Source of the DNA: Promethearchaeia archaeon
GTDB taxonomy: Archaea > Asgardarchaeota > Lokiarchaeia > Sigyniarchaeales > SOKP01
DNA: 64,000 nt
Direction of reading: 5' to 3'
Assembly (NCBI GenBank): GCA_029856045.1
Contig: JAHQWG010000028.1
Span: forward strand, 78,547-142,546
Shown here: in pieces, positions 33,945 through 42,173 of the stretch
Position numbering within the stretch: the stretch's first letter is position 1
Layout: each line of letters starts with the position of its first letter
Position numbers and translations under genes: made by a program
The notes under the pieces: model-generated
The model's database searches: none
What the model was told of the DNA's origin: nothing
Seen by the model: only the letters and a program-made list of their open reading frames with translations

Positions 33945-35225
33945 ATGAATGATATCAACTCTAATATTCCTGGATTTTATAAATTATCAATTGATGAACG
34001 TCAACAAGTAATAACTAAACTTGTTAATCTTAATACAGAAGATCTTAAGTTGTTAAAAAATTATGGATATATTTCTCCTTCTCAACTAGATACATTAATA
34101 GAAAACGTTATAGGAAGCTTTCACTTACCACTTGGTATTGCCTGTAATTTTAAAATTAATAATAAAGATTACATAATACCAATGGTTATTGAAGAACCAT
34201 CTGTTGTGGCTGCAGCTTCAAACGCTGCAAAAATTGCGAGAAAATTAGGTGGTTTCTATTCTGAAAAAGTCAAGTCAATTATGTTTTCTCAGATACAAAT
34301 CACGAATATAAAAGATATTAAAACTGCAAAAGACAATATTCAAAAAAATAAGGAAACTATCCTAAAAATTGCAAATGAACAGGATCCCTTGTTAGTAAGT
34401 TTAAATGGTGGAGCAATTGATCTTGAAATTCGGGAAATATCAACAAGAAAAGGACCCATGTTAATTATCCATTTATTAGTTAACGTTTTGGATGCAATGG
34501 GCGCAAATGTCGTAAATACCATGGCAGAAGCGGTGGCTCCATATTTAGAAGATATTTGTAATGGTCATATTTATTTACGAATTTTATCTAACTTAGCGAT
34601 ACATCGTCTTGCAAGGTGTAGAGCTGTTTTTGATAAAGAGTTATTAGGTGGAGATAAGGTAGTTGAGGGAATAATAAATGCTTATGAATTTGCACTCGCT
34701 GATCCTTTCAGAGCAACAACGCATAATAAAGGTATAATGAACGGAATTATAGCTTTAACAATGGCTACAGGAAATGATACCCGCGCTATTGAAGCTGGGG
34801 CTCATGCATTTGCGGCATTAAGTGGAAATTATTCTCCTTTGACAAAATTTCAAGTTGATTCAGATGGAAACTTAGTTGGAGAAATAGAATTACCTCTTGC
34901 TCTTGGCATTATAGGGGGTATGACTAAAATACATCCAATGGCGCGGTTAGCGTTAAAGATTTTGGATATTAAAAGTGCTAATGAGCTTTCTCAAGTAGCT
35001 GCGGCTCTTGGCTTGGCTCAAAATGTAGCTGCTCTAAGGGCTTTGGCTTCAGAGGGAATTCAGAAAGGACATATGTCCCTACATTCGAGAAATATTGCAA
35101 AACTGGCGGGTGTACCTGAAGAATTAATAGAAAAAGTTGCACAAAAGTTAGTGGAAGATAAAAAAATTAGAGTTGATTATGCGAAAGAAATATTGCAAAA
35201 AATAATTGATGGTGAAAACCTTTAG
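33945..35225 (+). CDS. Class II HMG-CoA reductase
   Basis: 426 aa. ENVIGSFHLPLGIACNFKINNKDYIIPMVIEEPSVVAAASNAAK, DAMGANVVNTM, ATTHNKGIMNGI and GHMSLHSRN. The length and motifs match the class II (Pseudomonas mevalonii/Archaeoglobus type) enzymes. Confidence 0.85.
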   Translation: MNDINSNIPGFYKLSIDERQQVITKLVNLNTEDLKLLKNYGYISPSQLDTLIENVIGSFHLPLGIACNFKINNKDYIIPMVIEEPSVVAAASNAAKIARKLGGFYSEKVKSIMFSQIQITNIKDIKTAKDNIQKNKETILKIANEQDPLLVSLNGGAIDLEIREISTRKGPMLIIHLLVNVLDAMGANVVNTMAEAVAPYLEDICNGHIYLRILSNLAIHRLARCRAVFDKELLGGDKVVEGIINAYEFALADPFRATTHNKGIMNGIIALTMATGNDTRAIEAGAHAFAALSGNYSPLTKFQVDSDGNLVGEIELPLALGIIGGMTKIHPMARLALKILDIKSANELSQVAAALGLAQNVAALRALASEGIQKGHMSLHSRNIAKLAGVPEELIEKVAQKLVEDKKIRVDYAKEILQKIIDGENL

Positions 35226-35307
35226 TTTTTAAAATTTGTTAATTTAACTTTTCTAAAAAAAGATAATAATGTAAATAATTGTATTATTAAAAATAAGTCT
35301 TAGATGA

Positions 35308-36618
35308 TTGAAATTTATGGGATTTAGAGAATATATAAATCAAATTGATGAGAAAGGCCTTCTTCGAAAGGTGGACATTGAAGTATCTAAGAAATTAGAG
35401 ATCTCTGGAATTTTAAAAGAGATTGAACCAACCCCAGTAATGTTTAATAATATTAAAGGATCGGAATTTCGCGTGATTGGAAATTTATTCTGTACTAAGA
35501 ATGTAATTGCTTCATATTTCGACGTATCTCCGGCAGATCTCATACCAATGCTTTCTAAAGCGATAACTGAACGCTCAGAACCAGAGATCGTGTCAAACGC
35601 CCCTTGTCAAGAGATAATAGAATCAAGCGTAGATTTAGATAAATTACCAATTTTATTCCATTGCGAAAAGGACGGCGGAAATTACATTAGTTCCGCAGTT
35701 GTTATCACTAGAGATCCTGATTATGGACAAAACCTGGACTTTCATAGAGCCATGCAGTTTTCCAAAGATAAATTTGCTACTCGAATAGTTAGAGGTCGTC
35801 ATTTTCATAAATTTTTAGAAAAAAATGGTGAACTAGAAGTCGCTTTTTGTATTGGAAATAGCCCTAACATTCTTATTGCAGGAGCAACTTCTGTGGATAT
35901 TGGAGTTGATGAATTGCATATTGCAAATGCATTAGAATCAATAAAAGTTGTTAAAGCAAATTCAGTTGATCTTTTAATTCCTGCAGAAGCTGAATTTGTT
36001 TTAGAAGGAAGGGTCTATATGGAAGAAAACCATGCTGAGGGTCCCTTTGTCGATTTGACAGAAACCTATGATGTTATAAGAGAAGAACCTATTTTTGAAG
36101 TTAAAAAAATCACACATAGAAAAGATGCGATTTGGCAAGCCTTATTACCGGGGGCGCTTGAACATAAAATATTAATGGGTATGCCAAGAGAACCAACGAT
36201 TTTTAATAAAGTGAATGAAACAGGAGTTAAATGCTTAGATGTTAATATAAATCCTGGGGGATGCTCCTGGTTACATGCAATTGTGCAAATTGATAAAAAA
36301 TCAGAAGAAGATGGAAAAAAAGCTATTAATGGTGCTTTTACTGGCCATACTAGTTGTAAACACGTGTTTATTGTAGATAAAGATATTGATATTTATAATC
36401 CATTATCTGTGGAATGGGCAATGGCAACTCGCTTTCAAGGTGATATTAGAATGATTATTAAAGATAAAGAACCAGGAAGTAGTTTAGATCCTAGCGCAGA
36501 GCCAGGTACAAAAATGACAACTAAAATTGGATTTGATTTAACAAAACCACTTGTAGTTAAAGGAAAGAGCTTTGATATAGCGGATTTCCCAAAAGTAGAC
36601 TTGAACAAATATTTTTAA
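35308..36618 (+). CDS. UbiD-family decarboxylase, candidate trans-anhydromevalonate-5-phosphate decarboxylase
   Basis: 436 aa with UbiD-like layout (FREYI..L.EKGLL..V...V....EI; GGNYISSAVVITRDPD; EGPFVDLTETY; WAMATRF). The call rests mainly on its position directly upstream of the two AcnX genes. The track start is the TTG at 35308, with an alternative ATG at 35317. Confidence 0.7.
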   Translation: MKFMGFREYINQIDEKGLLRKVDIEVSKKLEISGILKEIEPTPVMFNNIKGSEFRVIGNLFCTKNVIASYFDVSPADLIPMLSKAITERSEPEIVSNAPCQEIIESSVDLDKLPILFHCEKDGGNYISSAVVITRDPDYGQNLDFHRAMQFSKDKFATRIVRGRHFHKFLEKNGELEVAFCIGNSPNILIAGATSVDIGVDELHIANALESIKVVKANSVDLLIPAEAEFVLEGRVYMEENHAEGPFVDLTETYDVIREEPIFEVKKITHRKDAIWQALLPGALEHKILMGMPREPTIFNKVNETGVKCLDVNINPGGCSWLHAIVQIDKKSEEDGKKAINGAFTGHTSCKHVFIVDKDIDIYNPLSVEWAMATRFQGDIRMIIKDKEPGSSLDPSAEPGTKMTTKIGFDLTKPLVVKGKSFDIADFPKVDLNKYF

Positions 36619-36631
36619 TATAGAGGAGTCG

Positions 36632-37831
36632 ATGAGATTGAAATTAACATCAGAAGAAAAAGAGATGTTGGAAGGTAAGCAAGGAAGATCTGCTCAAAAA
36701 TCCATGGAGATATTAACCACATTAGGTGAAATATTTGATGCAGAATGTATGATTGAGGTTTATAGCGTGCAAATAGCAGGAGTTTCCTATGCAAATTTAG
36801 GGGAAGCAGGTCTAGAATTTTTAAATGAGATGGCAGAAGATGGAAAGGTTAGGGTTTTAACAACTTTAAATCCAGCTGGAATGGACCGAGAAAATTGGCA
36901 AGCTTTAGGAATTGAAGAAGAATTTGCTATTAATCAAAACCGTGCTATAGATGCTTTTGCAAAAATGGGTATAATTACAACATGTTCTTGTACACCATAT
37001 TTAATAGGAAATGTACCTCACTTTGGTCAGCATATTGCTTGGGCTGAGAGTAGTGCTGTCTGCTATTCAAATTCTGTCATTGGTGCTCGAACAAATCGTG
37101 AAGGTGGTCCGAGTGCGCTAGCTGCTGCTTTAACTGGAAAAACACCAAAATATGGTTATCATCTAGACAAAAATCGTCATGGACAGGTCTTATTTGAAGT
37201 TAAGGTTCCAGTGAAAGGTACAGATGAATTTGGCGTGTTAGGAAAAATAATTGGGGATAAATTGGTTGAATTAGGAAAGAAAATACCTTATATTACTGGA
37301 ATTTCTTCAGCAACAGTTGAGGAACTTAAGTCATTTTGCGCTTCAGTGGCTACTTATGGAGGTACAGCATTATTTCATATGGAAGGCATAACCCCAGAAT
37401 ATAATATGTATCCTAAGCCAAAAGATGATATTTTTGAAATTAATCAGGATAACCTTAATAAAACTCGGTCTGATCTTATTGATGATGATATTGAAATTGA
37501 TTTCGTTAGTATTGGGTGTCCTCACGCTTCAATTCACGAAATAGCAACAATTGCAAGTTTATTGAAAGGTAATAAAGTAAATAAAGAATTTTGGATTACT
37601 ACTGCTCGACCTACAAAAAGAATTGCAGATGAAGCTGGCTATTCTAAAATTATTGAGGATGCTGGGGCCAAATTCGCTTCAGATACATGTTGTGTTGTAG
37701 CTCCTATTAAAGGTCGCTTTAAAGGAATTATGGTAGATTCAGCTAAAGCGTGTTATTATGGCCGTGCAAAGAATAAATTTAAAGTAAAAATTGGCTCAAT
37801 CGAAAAATGTGTTGAGGAGGCGGTAAAATGA
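36632..37831 (+). CDS. Aconitase X catalytic (DUF521) subunit, candidate phosphomevalonate dehydratase large subunit
   Basis: 399 aa with LTSEEKEMLEGKQG, SVQIAGVSY, TCSCTPYL, WAESSAVCYSNSVIGARTNREGGPSALAAALTGKTP and SIGCPHAS. Confidence 0.8.
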   Translation: MRLKLTSEEKEMLEGKQGRSAQKSMEILTTLGEIFDAECMIEVYSVQIAGVSYANLGEAGLEFLNEMAEDGKVRVLTTLNPAGMDRENWQALGIEEEFAINQNRAIDAFAKMGIITTCSCTPYLIGNVPHFGQHIAWAESSAVCYSNSVIGARTNREGGPSALAAALTGKTPKYGYHLDKNRHGQVLFEVKVPVKGTDEFGVLGKIIGDKLVELGKKIPYITGISSATVEELKSFCASVATYGGTALFHMEGITPEYNMYPKPKDDIFEINQDNLNKTRSDLIDDDIEIDFVSIGCPHASIHEIATIASLLKGNKVNKEFWITTARPTKRIADEAGYSKIIEDAGAKFASDTCCVVAPIKGRFKGIMVDSAKACYYGRAKNKFKVKIGSIEKCVEEAVK

Positions 37832-38217
37832 AGTTAGAAGGAAGAAAAATTTATAAAGGAACTGCTGAGGCAGAAGCAATTGTAACAAAAGATGGTATTT
37901 CATTTTATGGTGGCGTTGACCCTGATACTGGTAAAGTTGTCGAGGTTGGACATGAACTTGAAGGTCAATCCATAACAGGAAAAGTTTTAGTCTTTCCTAC
38001 TGGTAAGGGTTCAACTGTAGGGTCATACACAATGTATAGAATGAAAAAAAAAAATACGGCACCAGTAGCAATCGTAAACAAACAAATAGATACAATCGTA
38101 GCAGTAGGTTGCATAATTAGTGAAATTCCTTGTGTAGATAAAATTAATATTAATAATATTAAAACCGGACAAAAAGTTATTGTTAATGGTTCCGAAGGTA
38201 CTGTGGAGGTGAAATAA
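37828..38217 (+). CDS. Aconitase X swivel (DUF126) subunit, candidate phosphomevalonate dehydratase small subunit
   Basis: 129 aa. GEAEAIVTKDGISFYGGVDPDTGKV...GKVLVFPTGKGSTVGSY. A 4-nt ATGA overlap with the large-subunit gene suggests translational coupling. Confidence 0.8.
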   Translation: MKLEGRKIYKGTAEAEAIVTKDGISFYGGVDPDTGKVVEVGHELEGQSITGKVLVFPTGKGSTVGSYTMYRMKKKNTAPVAIVNKQIDTIVAVGCIISEIPCVDKININNIKTGQKVIVNGSEGTVEVK

Positions 38218-38236
38218 ACGGGAACTGGAAAAGGAT

Positions 38237-39184
38237 ATGGAAAGACCATCCTTTTTGGCGAAATTTTTTTCCCACTTCGGGGATAAACGCAATCATTTTG
38301 TGGTTTATGGTCTTCCCGCAATCGCATCGGCGTTAGGCGCTAATACAATCGCAGAAGTTAAAGTTGTTGAGGGACAAGGGTGGACTGTTGTCGATCAGAG
38401 ACCCGCTACGACCGGCTATAAAAAAAAGAAATATGATGAAGGAATGCAATCAATTAAAAATGTAATCAAGCATTTAAAAATAGATACAGAGAGTCAAAAA
38501 CTTGGAATAACTTTTGCTGGAGATTTAATTGCTGCGAGTGGAGTTGGTGCTTCAGCGGCTCAATGTACATCACTAGCTCGGGCTTTAAACGACAGCTTTA
38601 ATCTAAATTTAGACGATGAAAAGATAAATGAAGCTGCGTATGAAGGAGAGAAAGCATATCACGGAACCCCATCTGGTATTGACAACACAGCTTCAACTTA
38701 TGGAGGATTGATTTGGTTTGTGAAAAACTTGAATGGTGGGAAAAATACTATGGACCTCTTGCAATCACCAATAAAAATGCCATTAATAATCGCTAATTCA
38801 GGAATAACTGCTTCTACGATAGAAGTAGTTGCTGATGTTCGGCGTTTAAAAGATAAAAATCCTAATAAATTTGAGAAAATTTTTAAGGAATATAAAGAAA
38901 TAGCAGATAAAGCAAAAATGGCCTTACTTGAAGGAAATATTATTTCTTTAGGTAATTTAATGAATCAAAACCACAAATTACTCCAAGAAATTACGGTTTC
39001 AGGAGAAATAAATGATAAATTAGTTCAAATAGCGTTAAAAAATGGAGCGATTGGTGCTAAAATGACAGGAACCGGGCGTGGTGGTTTAGTAATTGCTTTA
39101 GCTGAAAATAAAGAAATACAAGAAAAAATAGCCAAGGCAATCGAAAAAGGGGGTTATGATGCCTGGAAAACCATAATTGGATGA
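38237..39184 (+). CDS. mvk: Mevalonate kinase (GHMP kinase) with a disrupted or remodelled 5' end
   Basis: The body has clear MVK motifs: HFVVYGLPAIA, ASGVGASAAQCTSLARAL, HGTPSGIDNTASTYGG and KMTGTGRGGLVIAL. The conserved N-terminal motif GKTILFGE is encoded at 38239-38262 in a different frame from the rest of the gene (see finding). Confidence 0.75.
   Translation: MERPSFLAKFFSHFGDKRNHFVVYGLPAIASALGANTIAEVKVVEGQGWTVVDQRPATTGYKKKKYDEGMQSIKNVIKHLKIDTESQKLGITFAGDLIAASGVGASAAQCTSLARALNDSFNLNLDDEKINEAAYEGEKAYHGTPSGIDNTASTYGGLIWFVKNLNGGKNTMDLLQSPIKMPLIIANSGITASTIEVVADVRRLKDKNPNKFEKIFKEYKEIADKAKMALLEGNIISLGNLMNQNHKLLQEITVSGEINDKLVQIALKNGAIGAKMTGTGRGGLVIALAENKEIQEKIAKAIEKGGYDAWKTIIG
38263..38293 (+). 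other. 31-nt insertion-like segment (T7 run plus hairpin) splitting the GE|H motif of mevalonate kinase
   Basis: Removing these 31 nt joins ..GGC GAA|CAT TTT GTG.. to read GKTILFGEHFVVYG in one frame. Positions 38265-38287 can fold with pairs 65-87, 66-86, 67-85, 69-83, 70-82 (G-U), 71-81, 72-80 and 73-79. The loop is ACTTC and there is one T-T mismatch. Confidence 0.5.
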
Positions 39185-39196
39185 GATTGATTTAAA

Positions 39197-40006
39197 TTGA
39201 ATAACAATAATGAAATTTATCTATTGAAGTTAGGTGGAAGTTTATTAACTGATAAAAATAGACCCTTTTCTATTAGGAAAAATGTTGTTAAAAGCGCAGT
39301 TCAACAAATTATAGATGCTAATGAAAAATTAATATTAATTCATGGAGGAGGTTCGTTTGGCCATCCTCTTGCAAAAAAATACAACCTTTCAAAAGGAATA
39401 GATGCATCGATTCAAAATCAAATTCTTGGACTTACTGAAACTCACCAATCAATGAACAAATTCAATTCCTATTTAATTAATCAATTTTTAGAAAAAAAAT
39501 ATCCTGTATTATCAATTCAAGCTTCCAGCATTTTCATCAAAGATTCTCAAAATATCTCAACTCAATCGATTAATGTTATTGAAACCGCCTTAGATCTTGA
39601 TATTTTACCTATTTTGTATGGAGATATAATCCTTGATTCAAAGGGGTCATTCTCAATTATTTCTGGGGACCAAATCATCGTTGAATTATGTGAAAAAATT
39701 AAAAAGTATAATATCTTTAAAGTTATTTTCGCTATTGAAAAAGATGGATTATTCATTAAAGAAAGAGTTAATAGCAAATTGAATATAAAACTGGCGAGAG
39801 AATTAAAATTCGAAGATTTAGATATAATTGAAATCGCTGATTTAGAAAGTAAAATTGATGTAACAGGCGGAATTAAAGGTAAAATTAATAAAATCAAACA
39901 AATTTGTCAACAAAATATTCCCGTTCAAATAATAAATGGTTTAAAAGATGAATTTATACTTAAAGCATTAAAAAATCAAAATATTATTTCAACCAAAATA
40001 AAATGA
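39197..40006 (+). CDS. ipk: Isopentenyl phosphate kinase
   Basis: 269-aa amino-acid-kinase fold with LLKLGGSLLTDK, LILIHGGGSFGHPLAKKY, ISGDQI and DVTGG. The start is a TTG in the track. Confidence 0.8.
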   Translation: MNNNNEIYLLKLGGSLLTDKNRPFSIRKNVVKSAVQQIIDANEKLILIHGGGSFGHPLAKKYNLSKGIDASIQNQILGLTETHQSMNKFNSYLINQFLEKKYPVLSIQASSIFIKDSQNISTQSINVIETALDLDILPILYGDIILDSKGSFSIISGDQIIVELCEKIKKYNIFKVIFAIEKDGLFIKERVNSKLNIKLARELKFEDLDIIEIADLESKIDVTGGIKGKINKIKQICQQNIPVQIINGLKDEFILKALKNQNIISTKIK

Positions 40007-40016
40007 GCAAAGAATT

Positions 40017-41099
40017 ATGAATGAAAATGATATAAATAAGAGAAAACTGGATCATCTAAAAATCCCAATTGAGGAGGATGTTCAACATTCTGAAAATTAC
40101 TTCAAATATATTAAATTAATGCATCATTCTCTCCCTGAGGTAAATTTTGAAGATATCGATTTAACTACAAAATTTTTTGATAAACAAATATCGGCACCTA
40201 TTTGTATTGCGGCTATAACTGGCGGACATGAAATTTCTAAAGAAATCAATAGGATTCTTGCTACAGCCGCAGAATCAGAGAAAATCATAATGGGAGTGGG
40301 TAGTCAACGTGCTGGATTAGAAGATCTATCAACAGAGAACTCCTTTAAAGTGGTTCGAGAAGTTGCGCCTAATATTCCACTAATTGGAAATATTGGTATA
40401 GGGCAAATAAGTGAGAAAAATTTCAAAATTGAAAATTTTAAAAAATGCATTGATATGATTAACGCTAACGTAATGGCAATACATTTCAATGCTTTACATG
40501 AATTAGTTCAGGATAATGGGAATATCTCATATAATCTTTTCCGTTCAAATTTTCAAAAAATAAGAGAAAATATTAAGATTCCAATAATAGCAAAAGAAGT
40601 TGGAACTGGAATTAGTAAAGAAATGGCTTTAACACTTGAAAATCTCGGATTTGATGGATTTGATGTAGGGGGTTCAGGTGGAACAAGTTTTGCTGCAATT
40701 GAATCAAAGCGAAAGAGTTATGTCGTTGAAAAATATTCACGTAACCCAGCAGATCTTTTTAAAGATTGGGGAATACCAACTCCTGTAAGTATAATTAATG
40801 TAAGGAAAGTTTCAAATAAATTTATTATTGCGACCGGTGGACTTAGAAATGGAGTTGATATTGCTAAATCCATTATTTTAGGTGCTGATATTGGCGGATT
40901 TGCTTATAATTTCCTAGTATCTGCGTGGAAAGATTATCAAAATGATACTATTAGCAATACCATAAAGGAAATTAGAACTTTAAAGCATGAGATACGCTCT
41001 TGTCTATGGTTAATGAATTTAAAGAATATAAATGAATTAAAGAATAGTTCTAATAAAAGAGTTATTCTTGGTATATTATATGAGTGGTTAAATCAATAA
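40017..41099 (+). CDS. fni: Type 2 (FMN-dependent) isopentenyl-diphosphate delta-isomerase
   Basis: RKLDHLKI, SAPICIAAITGG, MGVGSQRA, IIAKEVGTGIS, GFDVGGSGGTSFA and IIATGGLRNGVDIAKSIILGAD. Confidence 0.85.
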   Translation: MNENDINKRKLDHLKIPIEEDVQHSENYFKYIKLMHHSLPEVNFEDIDLTTKFFDKQISAPICIAAITGGHEISKEINRILATAAESEKIIMGVGSQRAGLEDLSTENSFKVVREVAPNIPLIGNIGIGQISEKNFKIENFKKCIDMINANVMAIHFNALHELVQDNGNISYNLFRSNFQKIRENIKIPIIAKEVGTGISKEMALTLENLGFDGFDVGGSGGTSFAAIESKRKSYVVEKYSRNPADLFKDWGIPTPVSIINVRKVSNKFIIATGGLRNGVDIAKSIILGADIGGFAYNFLVSAWKDYQNDTISNTIKEIRTLKHEIRSCLWLMNLKNINELKNSSNKRVILGILYEWLNQ

Positions 41100-41105
41100 T
41101 TCTGC

Positions 41106-42173
41106 TTAAAACTTACGCTCAATGACATATTTTAGTAAATTTTCAAAAAATTCTGCCTCAGATTGATTAATATTTGGAATTAACTCATCAAGCTGAATCC
41201 TAGCAATTTTAGCATAATCATTTACTAGGTTCTTACAAGAATATACAGTCTCAGCTTCAAGAAATAAATCCTTGACTTCTTGAATTTCCTCATCTTTTAT
41301 ATCAGGATTTCCAATTAAATCAAGGATCTTTTCTTTTTTATTGTAATCTAATTTTTCAAGAGCATCTATTAACAAACAAGTTTTCTTACCTTCCCTTATA
41401 TCTCCATTTGTAGGTTTTCCAGTAATTTTTTCATCTCCAAAAGTTCCTAATATATCATCGGTCATTTGAAAGATGATTCCTAGATTAATCGCATATTTAG
41501 AGATGTTTTGAAGAAATTTATCCTCAACTCTAGCATAATTCGCGCCAATTAACATTGCTTTTTCTATTAATGCACTGGTTTTTAATGAAATCATTTCAAT
41601 ATATTCTTGCATTCGTAAAGATTCTCGATTTACCATGTCTAATTCGATTAATACACCATTACTGATCTCTTTAAATGCCTGTTCATAATATTTAATAGCT
41701 GTAAGATTTTGGTCGAGATTAAACTCATTATCAAAAAAAGCTTCTAAACCAAAAAAGAACGCTGAATCTCCACCTATAATCCCTATAGAATTACCATAAT
41801 CTTCTTTATTCATTTTTTGAAACGTTAACTTCGAATAGTATTGTTTAAATCTATAATGAAATGCGGGACAATTTCGCCTAAAATCATCCTTATCTATAAT
41901 ATCATCATGAATTAATGAAGCGTTATGAAGAAATTCTACACCTACACTGGGAGAAACAATCTTATCATCTCTTTCGAGGTTAAATGCGTTATATGTAGCA
42001 ATGCAAATCAAAGGTCGTAAACGTTTTCCACCAACTAAAAAATAATCCATTAACTCTTGATAATAATCTTTTAAAAATGGATTCTTTACCTCATTTAACT
42101 TCTTTTCATAAATTCTCTTTATCGCATTATTGATTTTAGGCTTGTACATATTCAAATATTCTGGAACTTTCAT
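41106..42173 (-). CDS. Polyprenyl (geranylgeranyl) diphosphate synthase
   Basis: First Asp-rich motif LIHDDIIDKD, second Asp-rich motif QMTDDILG, plus GGKRLRP and GKPTNGDIREGKKT. Confidence 0.8.
   Translation of the reverse strand: MKVPEYLNMYKPKINNAIKRIYEKKLNEVKNPFLKDYYQELMDYFLVGGKRLRPLICIATYNAFNLERDDKIVSPSVGVEFLHNASLIHDDIIDKDDFRRNCPAFHYRFKQYYSKLTFQKMNKEDYGNSIGIIGGDSAFFFGLEAFFDNEFNLDQNLTAIKYYEQAFKEISNGVLIELDMVNRESLRMQEYIEMISLKTSALIEKAMLIGANYARVEDKFLQNISKYAINLGIIFQMTDDILGTFGDEKITGKPTNGDIREGKKTCLLIDALEKLDYNKKEKILDLIGNPDIKDEEIQEVKDLFLEAETVYSCKNLVNDYAKIARIQLDELIPNINQSEAEFFENLLKYVIERKF

Follow-up and report, generated by a model that had tools for sequence, protein, structure and literature searches.

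How does an archaeon make an active mevalonate kinase (MVK) from a gene whose conserved N-terminal motif lies out of frame with the rest of the coding sequence? This question is raised by a 64,000-nucleotide stretch of a Promethearchaeia archaeon genome (GenBank assembly GCA_029856045.1, contig JAHQWG010000028.1, positions 78,547 to 142,546 of the forward strand; hereafter the window, numbered from its first letter), in which the mvk gene follows the gene for the small subunit of AcnX (DUF126), which ends at the TAA at 38215-38217. Directly after this stop, fifteen triplets running from ACG to GGC GAA (38218-38262) encode TGTGKGYGKTILFGE in what we call frame 0, which then continues with IFFPLRG and meets a TAA at 38284-38286. 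The rest of the motif, HFVVYG, resumes at 38294 in a different frame, opened by an ATG at 38237, and this is the long open reading frame (ORF) picked by gene finders, which reads MERPSFLAKFFSHFGDKRN-HFVVYGLPAIA and encodes 315 amino acids. An earlier reading of this DNA (the original prediction) had described the arrangement as an MVK motif-1 segment without a start codon, with a 31-nt insert containing a hairpin between it and the gene body, and had offered four explanations: an active kinase with a remodelled N-terminus, a recent pseudogene, an assembly or homopolymer error, and +1 recoding. Its sequence facts hold, down to the ACG at the start position, while none of the four explanations agrees with the comparisons reported here. 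We propose one that was absent from that list, namely that the insert is very likely an intron removed at the RNA level and probably an archaeal bulge-helix-bulge (BHB) intron of the EndA/ligase type, located within the mvk coding region.

Removal of the 31 nt from 38263 to 38293 gives GKTILFGEHFVVYG, as the original prediction had stated. We found that the spliced product aligns with the Leishmania major mevalonate kinase 2hfs (GYGKVILFGEHFVVHG) without gaps at the N-terminus, starting from the first residue, with an E-value of 9e-72 for the whole protein. It also scores 228 bits against NCBIfam TIGR00549 over profile positions 3-276, compared to 209.5 bits over positions 11-276 for the annotated ORF. 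In the L. major enzyme, Lys18, which is strictly conserved, and Glu24 are catalytic, and GHMP-kinase motif 1 has Glu24-His25 as its core (PMC1851959). It is precisely the codons for Glu24 and His25 that the insert separates, with both Lys18 and Glu24 on the exon 1 side, and the annotated product lacks these two residues, as had been predicted. Only the spliced product combines motif 1 (the catalytic Lys and the Glu-His pair) with a full-length match to TIGR00549. Since the two halves of motif 1 lie on either side of the insert, the cell needs both parts joined precisely.

The original prediction had proposed a comparison with orthologous loci. We scanned one genome per species and obtained 65 mvk loci, nearly all labelled Promethearchaeota (Lokiarchaeia-like Asgard archaea). 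The insert was found at the identical GAA/CAT junction in 24 scanned loci and in the window, which makes 25 species-level genomes (31 nt in 23 and 30 nt in 2), while 40 relatives possess an uninterrupted junction of the GKTILFGEHFVVYG type. A DNA-pattern scan of metagenome contigs returned 61 matches, comprising 54 genuine mvk junctions and 7 chance matches without MVK context, which is close to the number expected. In total, about 80 independently assembled contigs carry the insert, and removal of duplicates left 64 distinct 79-nt junction sequences (alignment A2), referred to below as the 64 sequences. Every copy of the insert has a stop in the exon 1 frame. In five alleles (L042, L043/L066, L081, and L104), the insert is only 30 nt long, and the position of the missing base varies, with three or four positions represented; here both exons are in the same frame and a stop lies between them. 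Since inserts of 30 and 31 nt both occur, only exact excision between GAA and CAT restores FGEHF.

The predicted RNA structure arrives at the same junction. In BHB introns, cleavage occurs "between the second and third residues in the bulges" (PMC2738675). Applied to the predicted structure, this rule yields the two cuts listed in Table 1 and releases exactly 38263-38293. The cut sites derived from the rule and the junction derived from homology (FGE/HFVVYG) therefore agree, and these are two independent lines.

Table 1. Features of the interrupted mvk locus, in window coordinates
Feature	Position	Strand	Description
Mevalonate-pathway cluster	33945..42173	.	Class II HMG-CoA reductase, UbiD-family decarboxylase, AcnX large and small subunits, mvk, isopentenyl phosphate kinase, IDI-2; geranylgeranyl diphosphate (GGPP) synthase on the minus strand
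Shine-Dalgarno-like GGAGGTG	38205..38211	+	Inside the 3' end of the AcnX small-subunit gene, 6 nt before the start-position codon; GGAGGTG or GGAGGTA in most related loci
ACG at start position	38218..38220	+	ATG, GTG, or TTG in relatives; putative near-cognate start or re-initiation site
Exon 1 of mvk	38218..38262	+	15 codons, (M/T)GTGKGYGKTILFGE; catalytic Lys and motif-1 Glu; peptide conserved in all insert-bearing loci
Clamp helix, 5' strand	38239..38249	+	GGAAAGACCAT; 38241 bulged
Central helix H, 5' strand (GGCG)	38257..38260	+	Last nucleotides of exon 1
Bulge B1 (AAA)	38261..38263	+	Cleanly bounded by H and the inner hairpin; predicted 5' cut 38262/38263
Proposed intron	38263..38293	+	31 nt (30 nt in five related alleles); same position in 64 distinct sequences
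Inner hairpin h'	38264..38287	+	38264-72 pairs with 38279-87, loop 38273-78; 3' strand abuts H directly
Central helix H, 3' strand (CGCA)	38288..38291	+	Fourth position G·A in the window; consensus CGCN
Bulge/loop B2 (A-T-C)	38292..38294	+	A-N-C in the family; predicted 3' cut 38293/38294; closed outside only by U38256–A38295
Exon 2 of mvk	38294..39184	+	HFVVYG… through the stop codon
Clamp helix, 3' strand	38307..38316	+	ATGGTCTTCC

Covariation across the 64 sequences supports this structure. In the inner hairpin, seven of the nine pairs show changes on both sides (one pair is CG in 19 sequences, UA in 18, and AU in 5). In the central helix, pair 38259/38289 is CG in 58, UG in 2, and UA in 4, while two further pairs are GC in 61 with GU in 3 and GC in all 64, respectively. 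In B2, the A at 38292 is invariant, and the closing pair U38256–A38295 is found in 64 of 64. For the BHB core alone, eight pairs have double changes, and none of 500 column shuffles reached the observed value on four measures. When the exon-exon clamp helix described below is included, 90.4% of cells pair, compared to 42-45% after shifting the partners by 1-3 columns. Double changes occur in nine pairs, and none of the five measures reached its observed value in any of 500 shuffles. The covariation bears out the 8-bp hairpin of the original prediction (38265-38287), but its form needs adjusting: the window copy has nine positions (38264-72/38279-87), two of them G·U pairs and one a U·U mismatch, and is not a clean 8 bp.

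We propose that, in the pre-mRNA, the GGCG at the end of exon 1 would pair with CGCN near the intron 3' end to form a central helix of four positions, with an AAA bulge and the 9-bp intron hairpin on the 5' side, an A-N-C segment on the 3' side, and a 10-bp helix between exons 1 and 2 clamping the whole region. The tRNA-splicing endonuclease EndA would then cut after the second nucleotide of each bulge, and an RtcB-type ligase would join GAA to CAT, producing an RNA junction in which …TTTGGCGAA is followed by CATTTTGT…. The mature mRNA would read …GYGKTILFGE/HFVVYG… and encode a normal kinase of 311 residues, with a predicted junction peptide TILFGEHFVVYGLPAIASALGANTIAEVK. As modelled, the motif is of the relaxed, HBh'-like form and not a strict hBHBh'. 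Asgard archaea possess an (αβ)2 EndA with an L1 loop that is linked to broad specificity and relaxed BHB substrates, and HBh'-like forms are substrates of (αβ)2 and ε2 endonucleases (PMC5829648).

Several points weigh against a BHB intron. Excision by EndA, joining by RtcB, and the existence of a spliced mRNA are what we infer from sequence. We noticed no endA or rtcB gene in the 64-kb window, and no search in the genome was aimed at them; an exact look-up of ten predicted spliced proteins in public assemblies found none, which is uninformative and lends no support. In the central helix, 37 of the 64 sequences have G·A and 26 have G·U as the fourth pair, an imperfection that relaxed motifs share. 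On the 3' side, a lone U-A pair closes the bulge and is followed by a U-rich internal loop, with no adjacent outer helix, which is non-canonical. In addition, the U-A compensations in the central helix possibly represent only one or two independent events, and the pattern used to retrieve the metagenome sequences fixed several flanking bases, which inflates apparent conservation, although not covariation at free positions. The window copy also folds weakly, only slightly better than shuffled sequences (z of -0.99 for 47 nt and -2.06 for 79 nt). Since the fold of a single copy is weak, the reality of the hairpin rests on the comparison of the 64 sequences and not on folding energy.

The G·A in the central helix and the missing outer helix are also what might be expected if the insert were excised from RNA by machinery other than EndA/RtcB, such as an unknown endonuclease recognizing the hairpin and the exon clamp, and BHB splicing has not been described as requiring a long exon-exon clamp. 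We consider this unlikely, although it is the best of the alternatives, since a helix of four positions, a 3-nt bulge, and a cut after the second bulge nucleotide on both strands reproduce the required junction exactly, and relaxed motifs are known substrates of the (αβ)2 enzymes carried by Asgard archaea. To our knowledge, there is no other protein-dependent mRNA splicing system in archaea.

A covariance model of the element (R1), run over the window with filters off, matched only the mvk element (E 4e-18; next match E 0.26), with no paralogous copy. A limited Pfam check of ten suspicious adjacent same-strand ORF pairs revealed none that looked split, and an Rfam scan of the window at gathering thresholds gave no match. 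Neither the window nor the 24 Lokiarchaeia-type loci scanned contained tRNA genes; the outgroup loci L056-L058 each carry an intron-less tRNA-Pro.

The clamp helix emerged from an unguided RNAalifold prediction, in which GGnAAGACCAT in exon 1 forms a 10-bp helix with ATGGTCTTCC in exon 2 that encloses the whole element. It is paired in 96.7% of cells across the 64 sequences, and on average 9.6 of its 10 pairs form in insert-bearing loci versus 7.2 in intron-less ones. Codon choice follows the helix. In the 25 insert-bearing genomes, the Lys codon is always AAG (AAA in 23 and AAG in 17 intron-less genomes), and the Thr codon is only ACC or ACT, both of which pair with G (intron-less: ACA 20, ACG 6, ACT 5, ACC 4). 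The Gly codon GGT occurs in 23 of 25 (intron-less: GGA 22, GGG 8, GGT 7) and the Leu codon CTT in 24 of 25, versus eight different Leu codons in intron-less genes. The Gly codon of the central helix is GGC in 24 of 25, with the lone GGT compensated, while intron-less genomes use all four GGN. On the other hand, third positions that the model leaves unpaired vary freely in insert-bearing genomes, namely those of the bulged Gly, Ile, the two Val codons, Pro, and subsequent codons. Synonymous sites are frozen at helix positions only, and in insert-bearing genomes only; since codon usage is frozen in this way, the clamp helix is real and tied to the intron.

About seven of the ten clamp pairs are present even in intron-less genes, where the G-K-T and Y-G-L codons are complementary. 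This pre-existing pairing may be a reason why an intron could establish itself at this site of mvk. RNAalifold also returned a local helix (columns 20-24 with 59-63) that competes with the central helix and is 100% pair-compatible. We rejected it as the functional structure, since the Gly-Glu and Phe-Val codons dictate four of its five pairs, none of the pairs changes on both sides, and it offers no frame-restoring BHB register; it may exist as a transient alternative.

The clamp helix further bears on programmed translational bypassing, the sole serious gap-skipping alternative, in which the ribosome would take off at GAA and land before CAT. Like the bypassing elements of T4 gene 60 and of Magnusiomyces mitochondria (byps), the mvk insert is a short, non-coding, hairpin-containing gap within an ORF, with both flanks under selection, and its 30-31 nt fall within the length range of byp elements. 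Unlike these elements, mvk has no matched take-off and landing codons (GAA or GAG versus AAT, TAT, AAA, TAG, TAA, or CAT), and the codon after take-off is ATT, TTT, or GTT, never a stop. The clamp spans codons that the ribosome would occupy at take-off and so cannot exist at that moment, which means that its conservation fits a pre-translational event. Moreover, the covarying pairs of the central helix link exon 1 to the 3' end of the gap in precisely the register of a BHB. Altogether, we regard bypassing as improbable.

If the RNA were translated unspliced from the ATG at 38237, the result would be the kinase with a remodelled N-terminus (MERPSF…) suggested by the original prediction. Gene callers do yield this 315-aa product. 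However, among 65 distinct insert-bearing alleles, 80% of single-nucleotide codon differences in exon 1 are synonymous in frame 0, compared to 10% in the annotated MERPSF frame (90% non-synonymous), and the alleles encode only 5 distinct exon 1 peptides in frame 0 versus 42 in the MERPSF frame. These comparisons indicate that exon 1 is under purifying selection in frame 0 and not in the MERPSF frame. The equivalent of ATG 38237 is present in 34 of the 65 alleles, and in 21 the exon 2 frame lacks any start codon at all; this ATG is formed by the overlap of the Tyr-Gly codons TAT-GGN and disappears when Tyr is encoded by TAC or replaced by Phe. The upstream 15-codon segment is intact in every insert-bearing locus. 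A MERPSF product would also be left without the catalytic Lys and the motif-1 Glu, and we find it very unlikely to be the enzyme.

Database relatives do share superficially similar annotated N-termini (MERP[SFY]FLAKF…KRNHFVVYG). The original prediction had taken an N-terminus shared among orthologs as the sign of a genuine variant; the likeness was found, but it is a false positive, because the same conserved nucleotides are read in the wrong frame. All insert-bearing mvk proteins in public collections are 314-315 aa long with the spurious MERP… N-terminus or, in one case, a 294-aa truncation (P0117), and none has the catalytic-lysine segment; the annotated proteins inspected were P0001, P0002, P0036, P0099, P0113, P0116, P0127-29, P0132, P0152, and P0154. 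A protein search for cultured Asgard strains with the insert returned, among its best 120 matches, only proteins from metagenome-assembled genomes (MAGs) or metagenomes. Such mis-annotated N-termini could make metabolic reconstructions score the mevalonate pathway as defective, and gene finders for Asgard archaea should allow for BHB introns.

A neighbour-joining tree of spliced MVK proteins, built without support values, limits the intron to the Lokiarchaeia-type MVK clade, whose deepest branches (L052-L054) have it; outgroups labelled Thor-, Hermod-, and Hodarchaeota (L056-L065) do not. Within the clade, intron-bearing and intron-less sequences are intermixed, and the nearest MVK relatives of the window (L001, L002, and L025, with 88-90% amino-acid identity) all lack the intron. 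The simplest reading is one old intron gain followed by several precise losses, as argued for the intron of the pseudouridine synthase gene cbf5. The upstream junction in L001, L002, and L025 differs as well: they have an extra short spacer (…TAAAATGGGGTAAAACTA) ahead of the ATG, whereas stop and start abut in the window. This suggests either that the intron was lost recently or that the 5' end of the gene recombined. We also observed Lokiarchaeia-type mvk contigs under implausible names, such as Nanopelagicaceae bacterium, Nitrosopumilales, Bathyarchaeota, and Thorarchaeota (L028, L029, L032, L033, L035, L037, L046, and L023), which points to mis-binning or mislabelling in public MAGs.

This distribution leaves little room for a pseudogene, that is, an mvk inactivated by a 31-nt insertion. 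As it stands, the frame is broken and has no canonical start. However, the arrangement is old and widespread and not recent, since the insertion is common to 64 distinct sequences over deep branches of the clade; both exons are intact and under purifying selection, with no further lesions, the gene cluster around mvk is otherwise intact, and no genome in the species scan gave a second mvk locus. We therefore find inactivation hardly credible. A sequencing or assembly artefact, or a +1 ribosomal frameshift, at the T7 homopolymer (38264-70) of the window would suit an insert length of 1 mod 3 but has a negligible chance of being correct, given that the insert recurs in about 80 independent contigs, most of which lack the T run (ATTTAC, ATTTAA, and similar; T7 is lineage-specific), that the five 30-nt alleles with in-frame stops show no constant frame relation between the ORF parts, and that a frameshift would leave a 10-residue insertion between Glu24 and His25. 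Group I, group II, and spliceosomal introns were rejected, as the insert falls well below their size, lacks GU-AG boundaries, and gives no Rfam match; archaea, as far as we know, have no spliceosome.

Besides the proposed intron, the start of mvk is unusual. The 15-codon exon 1 segment contains no ATG, GTG, or TTG, leaving no canonical in-frame start ahead of the catalytic Lys codon. ACG occupies the start position in 19 loci, always abutting the upstream stop and downstream of GGAGGTG; besides the window, these are L003, L009, L011, L014-16, L018, L023, L071, L074, L079, L083, L096, L109, L112, L115, L123, and L126, and two of them (L011 and L023) are intron-less species. Other codons at this position are CTG (L028, L097, and L105) and ATA (L090). 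Annotation pipelines begin such genes too far downstream; in the intron-less L011 gene, the NCBI pipeline places the start ten codons late (P0141, beginning MLFGEH). The sequence pattern suggests near-cognate initiation at ACG or termination-reinitiation at mvk. The ACG is a separate hint that start-codon rules in Lokiarchaeia may be looser than annotation pipelines assume.

Two further observations concern the pathway enzymes. The HMG-CoA reductase of the cluster (33945-35225) is of class II, the NAD type (TIGR00532, E 3e-142), while class I is the typical enzyme of most archaea. The spliced Asgard MVK is nearer to the trypanosomatid 2hfs than to the solved Methanosarcina and Methanocaldococcus MVKs (E about 1e-29 to 1e-22) and, judged by sequence, may belong to another subfamily than the classical archaeal MVK.

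Asgard archaea are the closest known relatives of eukaryotes, and the eukaryotic host lineage is thought to derive from them. An intron in an essential metabolic gene of this group would mean that interrupted protein genes needing RNA splicing have been tolerated and long maintained there. A short transcript, 64 natural variants, and intron-less alleles as controls would also make mvk a test system for relaxed-specificity EndA acting on mRNA. The cbf5 intron is said to have been treated by Watanabe (2002) and Yoshinari (2006) as well. As far as the searched literature goes, the protein-dependent BHB introns described in archaeal mRNAs comprise one in a coding region (cbf5 of Crenarchaeota) and one in a 5' untranslated region (UTR; Haloferax) (PMC7714728). 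Our literature searches, whose coverage was not exhaustive, turned up neither an mvk intron nor any mRNA intron from Asgard archaea, and the mvk intron is probably the second coding-region BHB case and the first reported in Asgard archaea, as far as the literature was searched.

The closest likeness is to cbf5, whose crenarchaeal intron forms an unconventional BHB and has a history of gain and loss (PMC2738675, Yokobori 2009). Both introns are short, lie within the coding region at a catalytic motif, have an unconventional or relaxed BHB, and are cut, or predicted to be cut, after the second bulge nucleotide, in hosts with a hetero-oligomeric EndA and with a patchy distribution that implies gain and loss. 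On the other hand, mvk encodes a metabolic kinase and not an RNA-modification enzyme, its Asgard (Lokiarchaeia) hosts belong to another phylum and are mesophilic and AT-rich, and its element has a distal 10-bp exon-exon clamp kept by frozen synonymous sites. Splicing of cbf5 has been demonstrated, while that of mvk is predicted from sequence comparison. The BHB intron of Haloferax volcanii HVO_1309 likewise targets an mRNA, outside tRNA and rRNA, but it lies in the 5' UTR, interrupts no reading frame, and is a canonical substrate of a homodimeric enzyme (Schwarz 2020, PMC7714728).

With the BHB introns of archaeal tRNA and rRNA, HBh' forms included, the mvk element, as modelled, shares the central helix of four positions, the 3-nt bulges (with the 3' one closed by a single pair), the predicted symmetric cleavage, a hairpin on the inner side, and a relaxed outer side (PMC5829648). 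Unlike them, it is hosted by an mRNA, and in place of the outer helix it has a distant helix between the two exons, beyond a U-rich internal loop. Non-canonical archaeal BHB forms were reportedly covered by Marck and Grosjean in 2003.

Among eukaryotes, the likeness is to HAC1 and XBP1, the latter with an intron of 26 nt. These too have a very short mRNA intron with stem-loop sites, processed by a protein endonuclease (IRE1) and a tRNA-type ligase (tRNA ligase or RtcB) with a change of frame (see PMC13149111). They differ from mvk in their endonuclease and recognition motif and in being stress-regulated; we found no evidence of regulation for mvk. It is conceivable, though rather doubtful, that mvk splicing is regulated and rate-limiting and not a constitutive housekeeping event, such that EndA/RtcB activity gates the supply of active MVK and of isoprenoid membrane lipids. 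If so, the persistence of the intron and its synonymous-site cost would reflect function and not the mere difficulty of precise loss, and the mvk intron would be an archaeal counterpart or forerunner of the frame-switching IRE1/RtcB splicing of HAC1 and XBP1.

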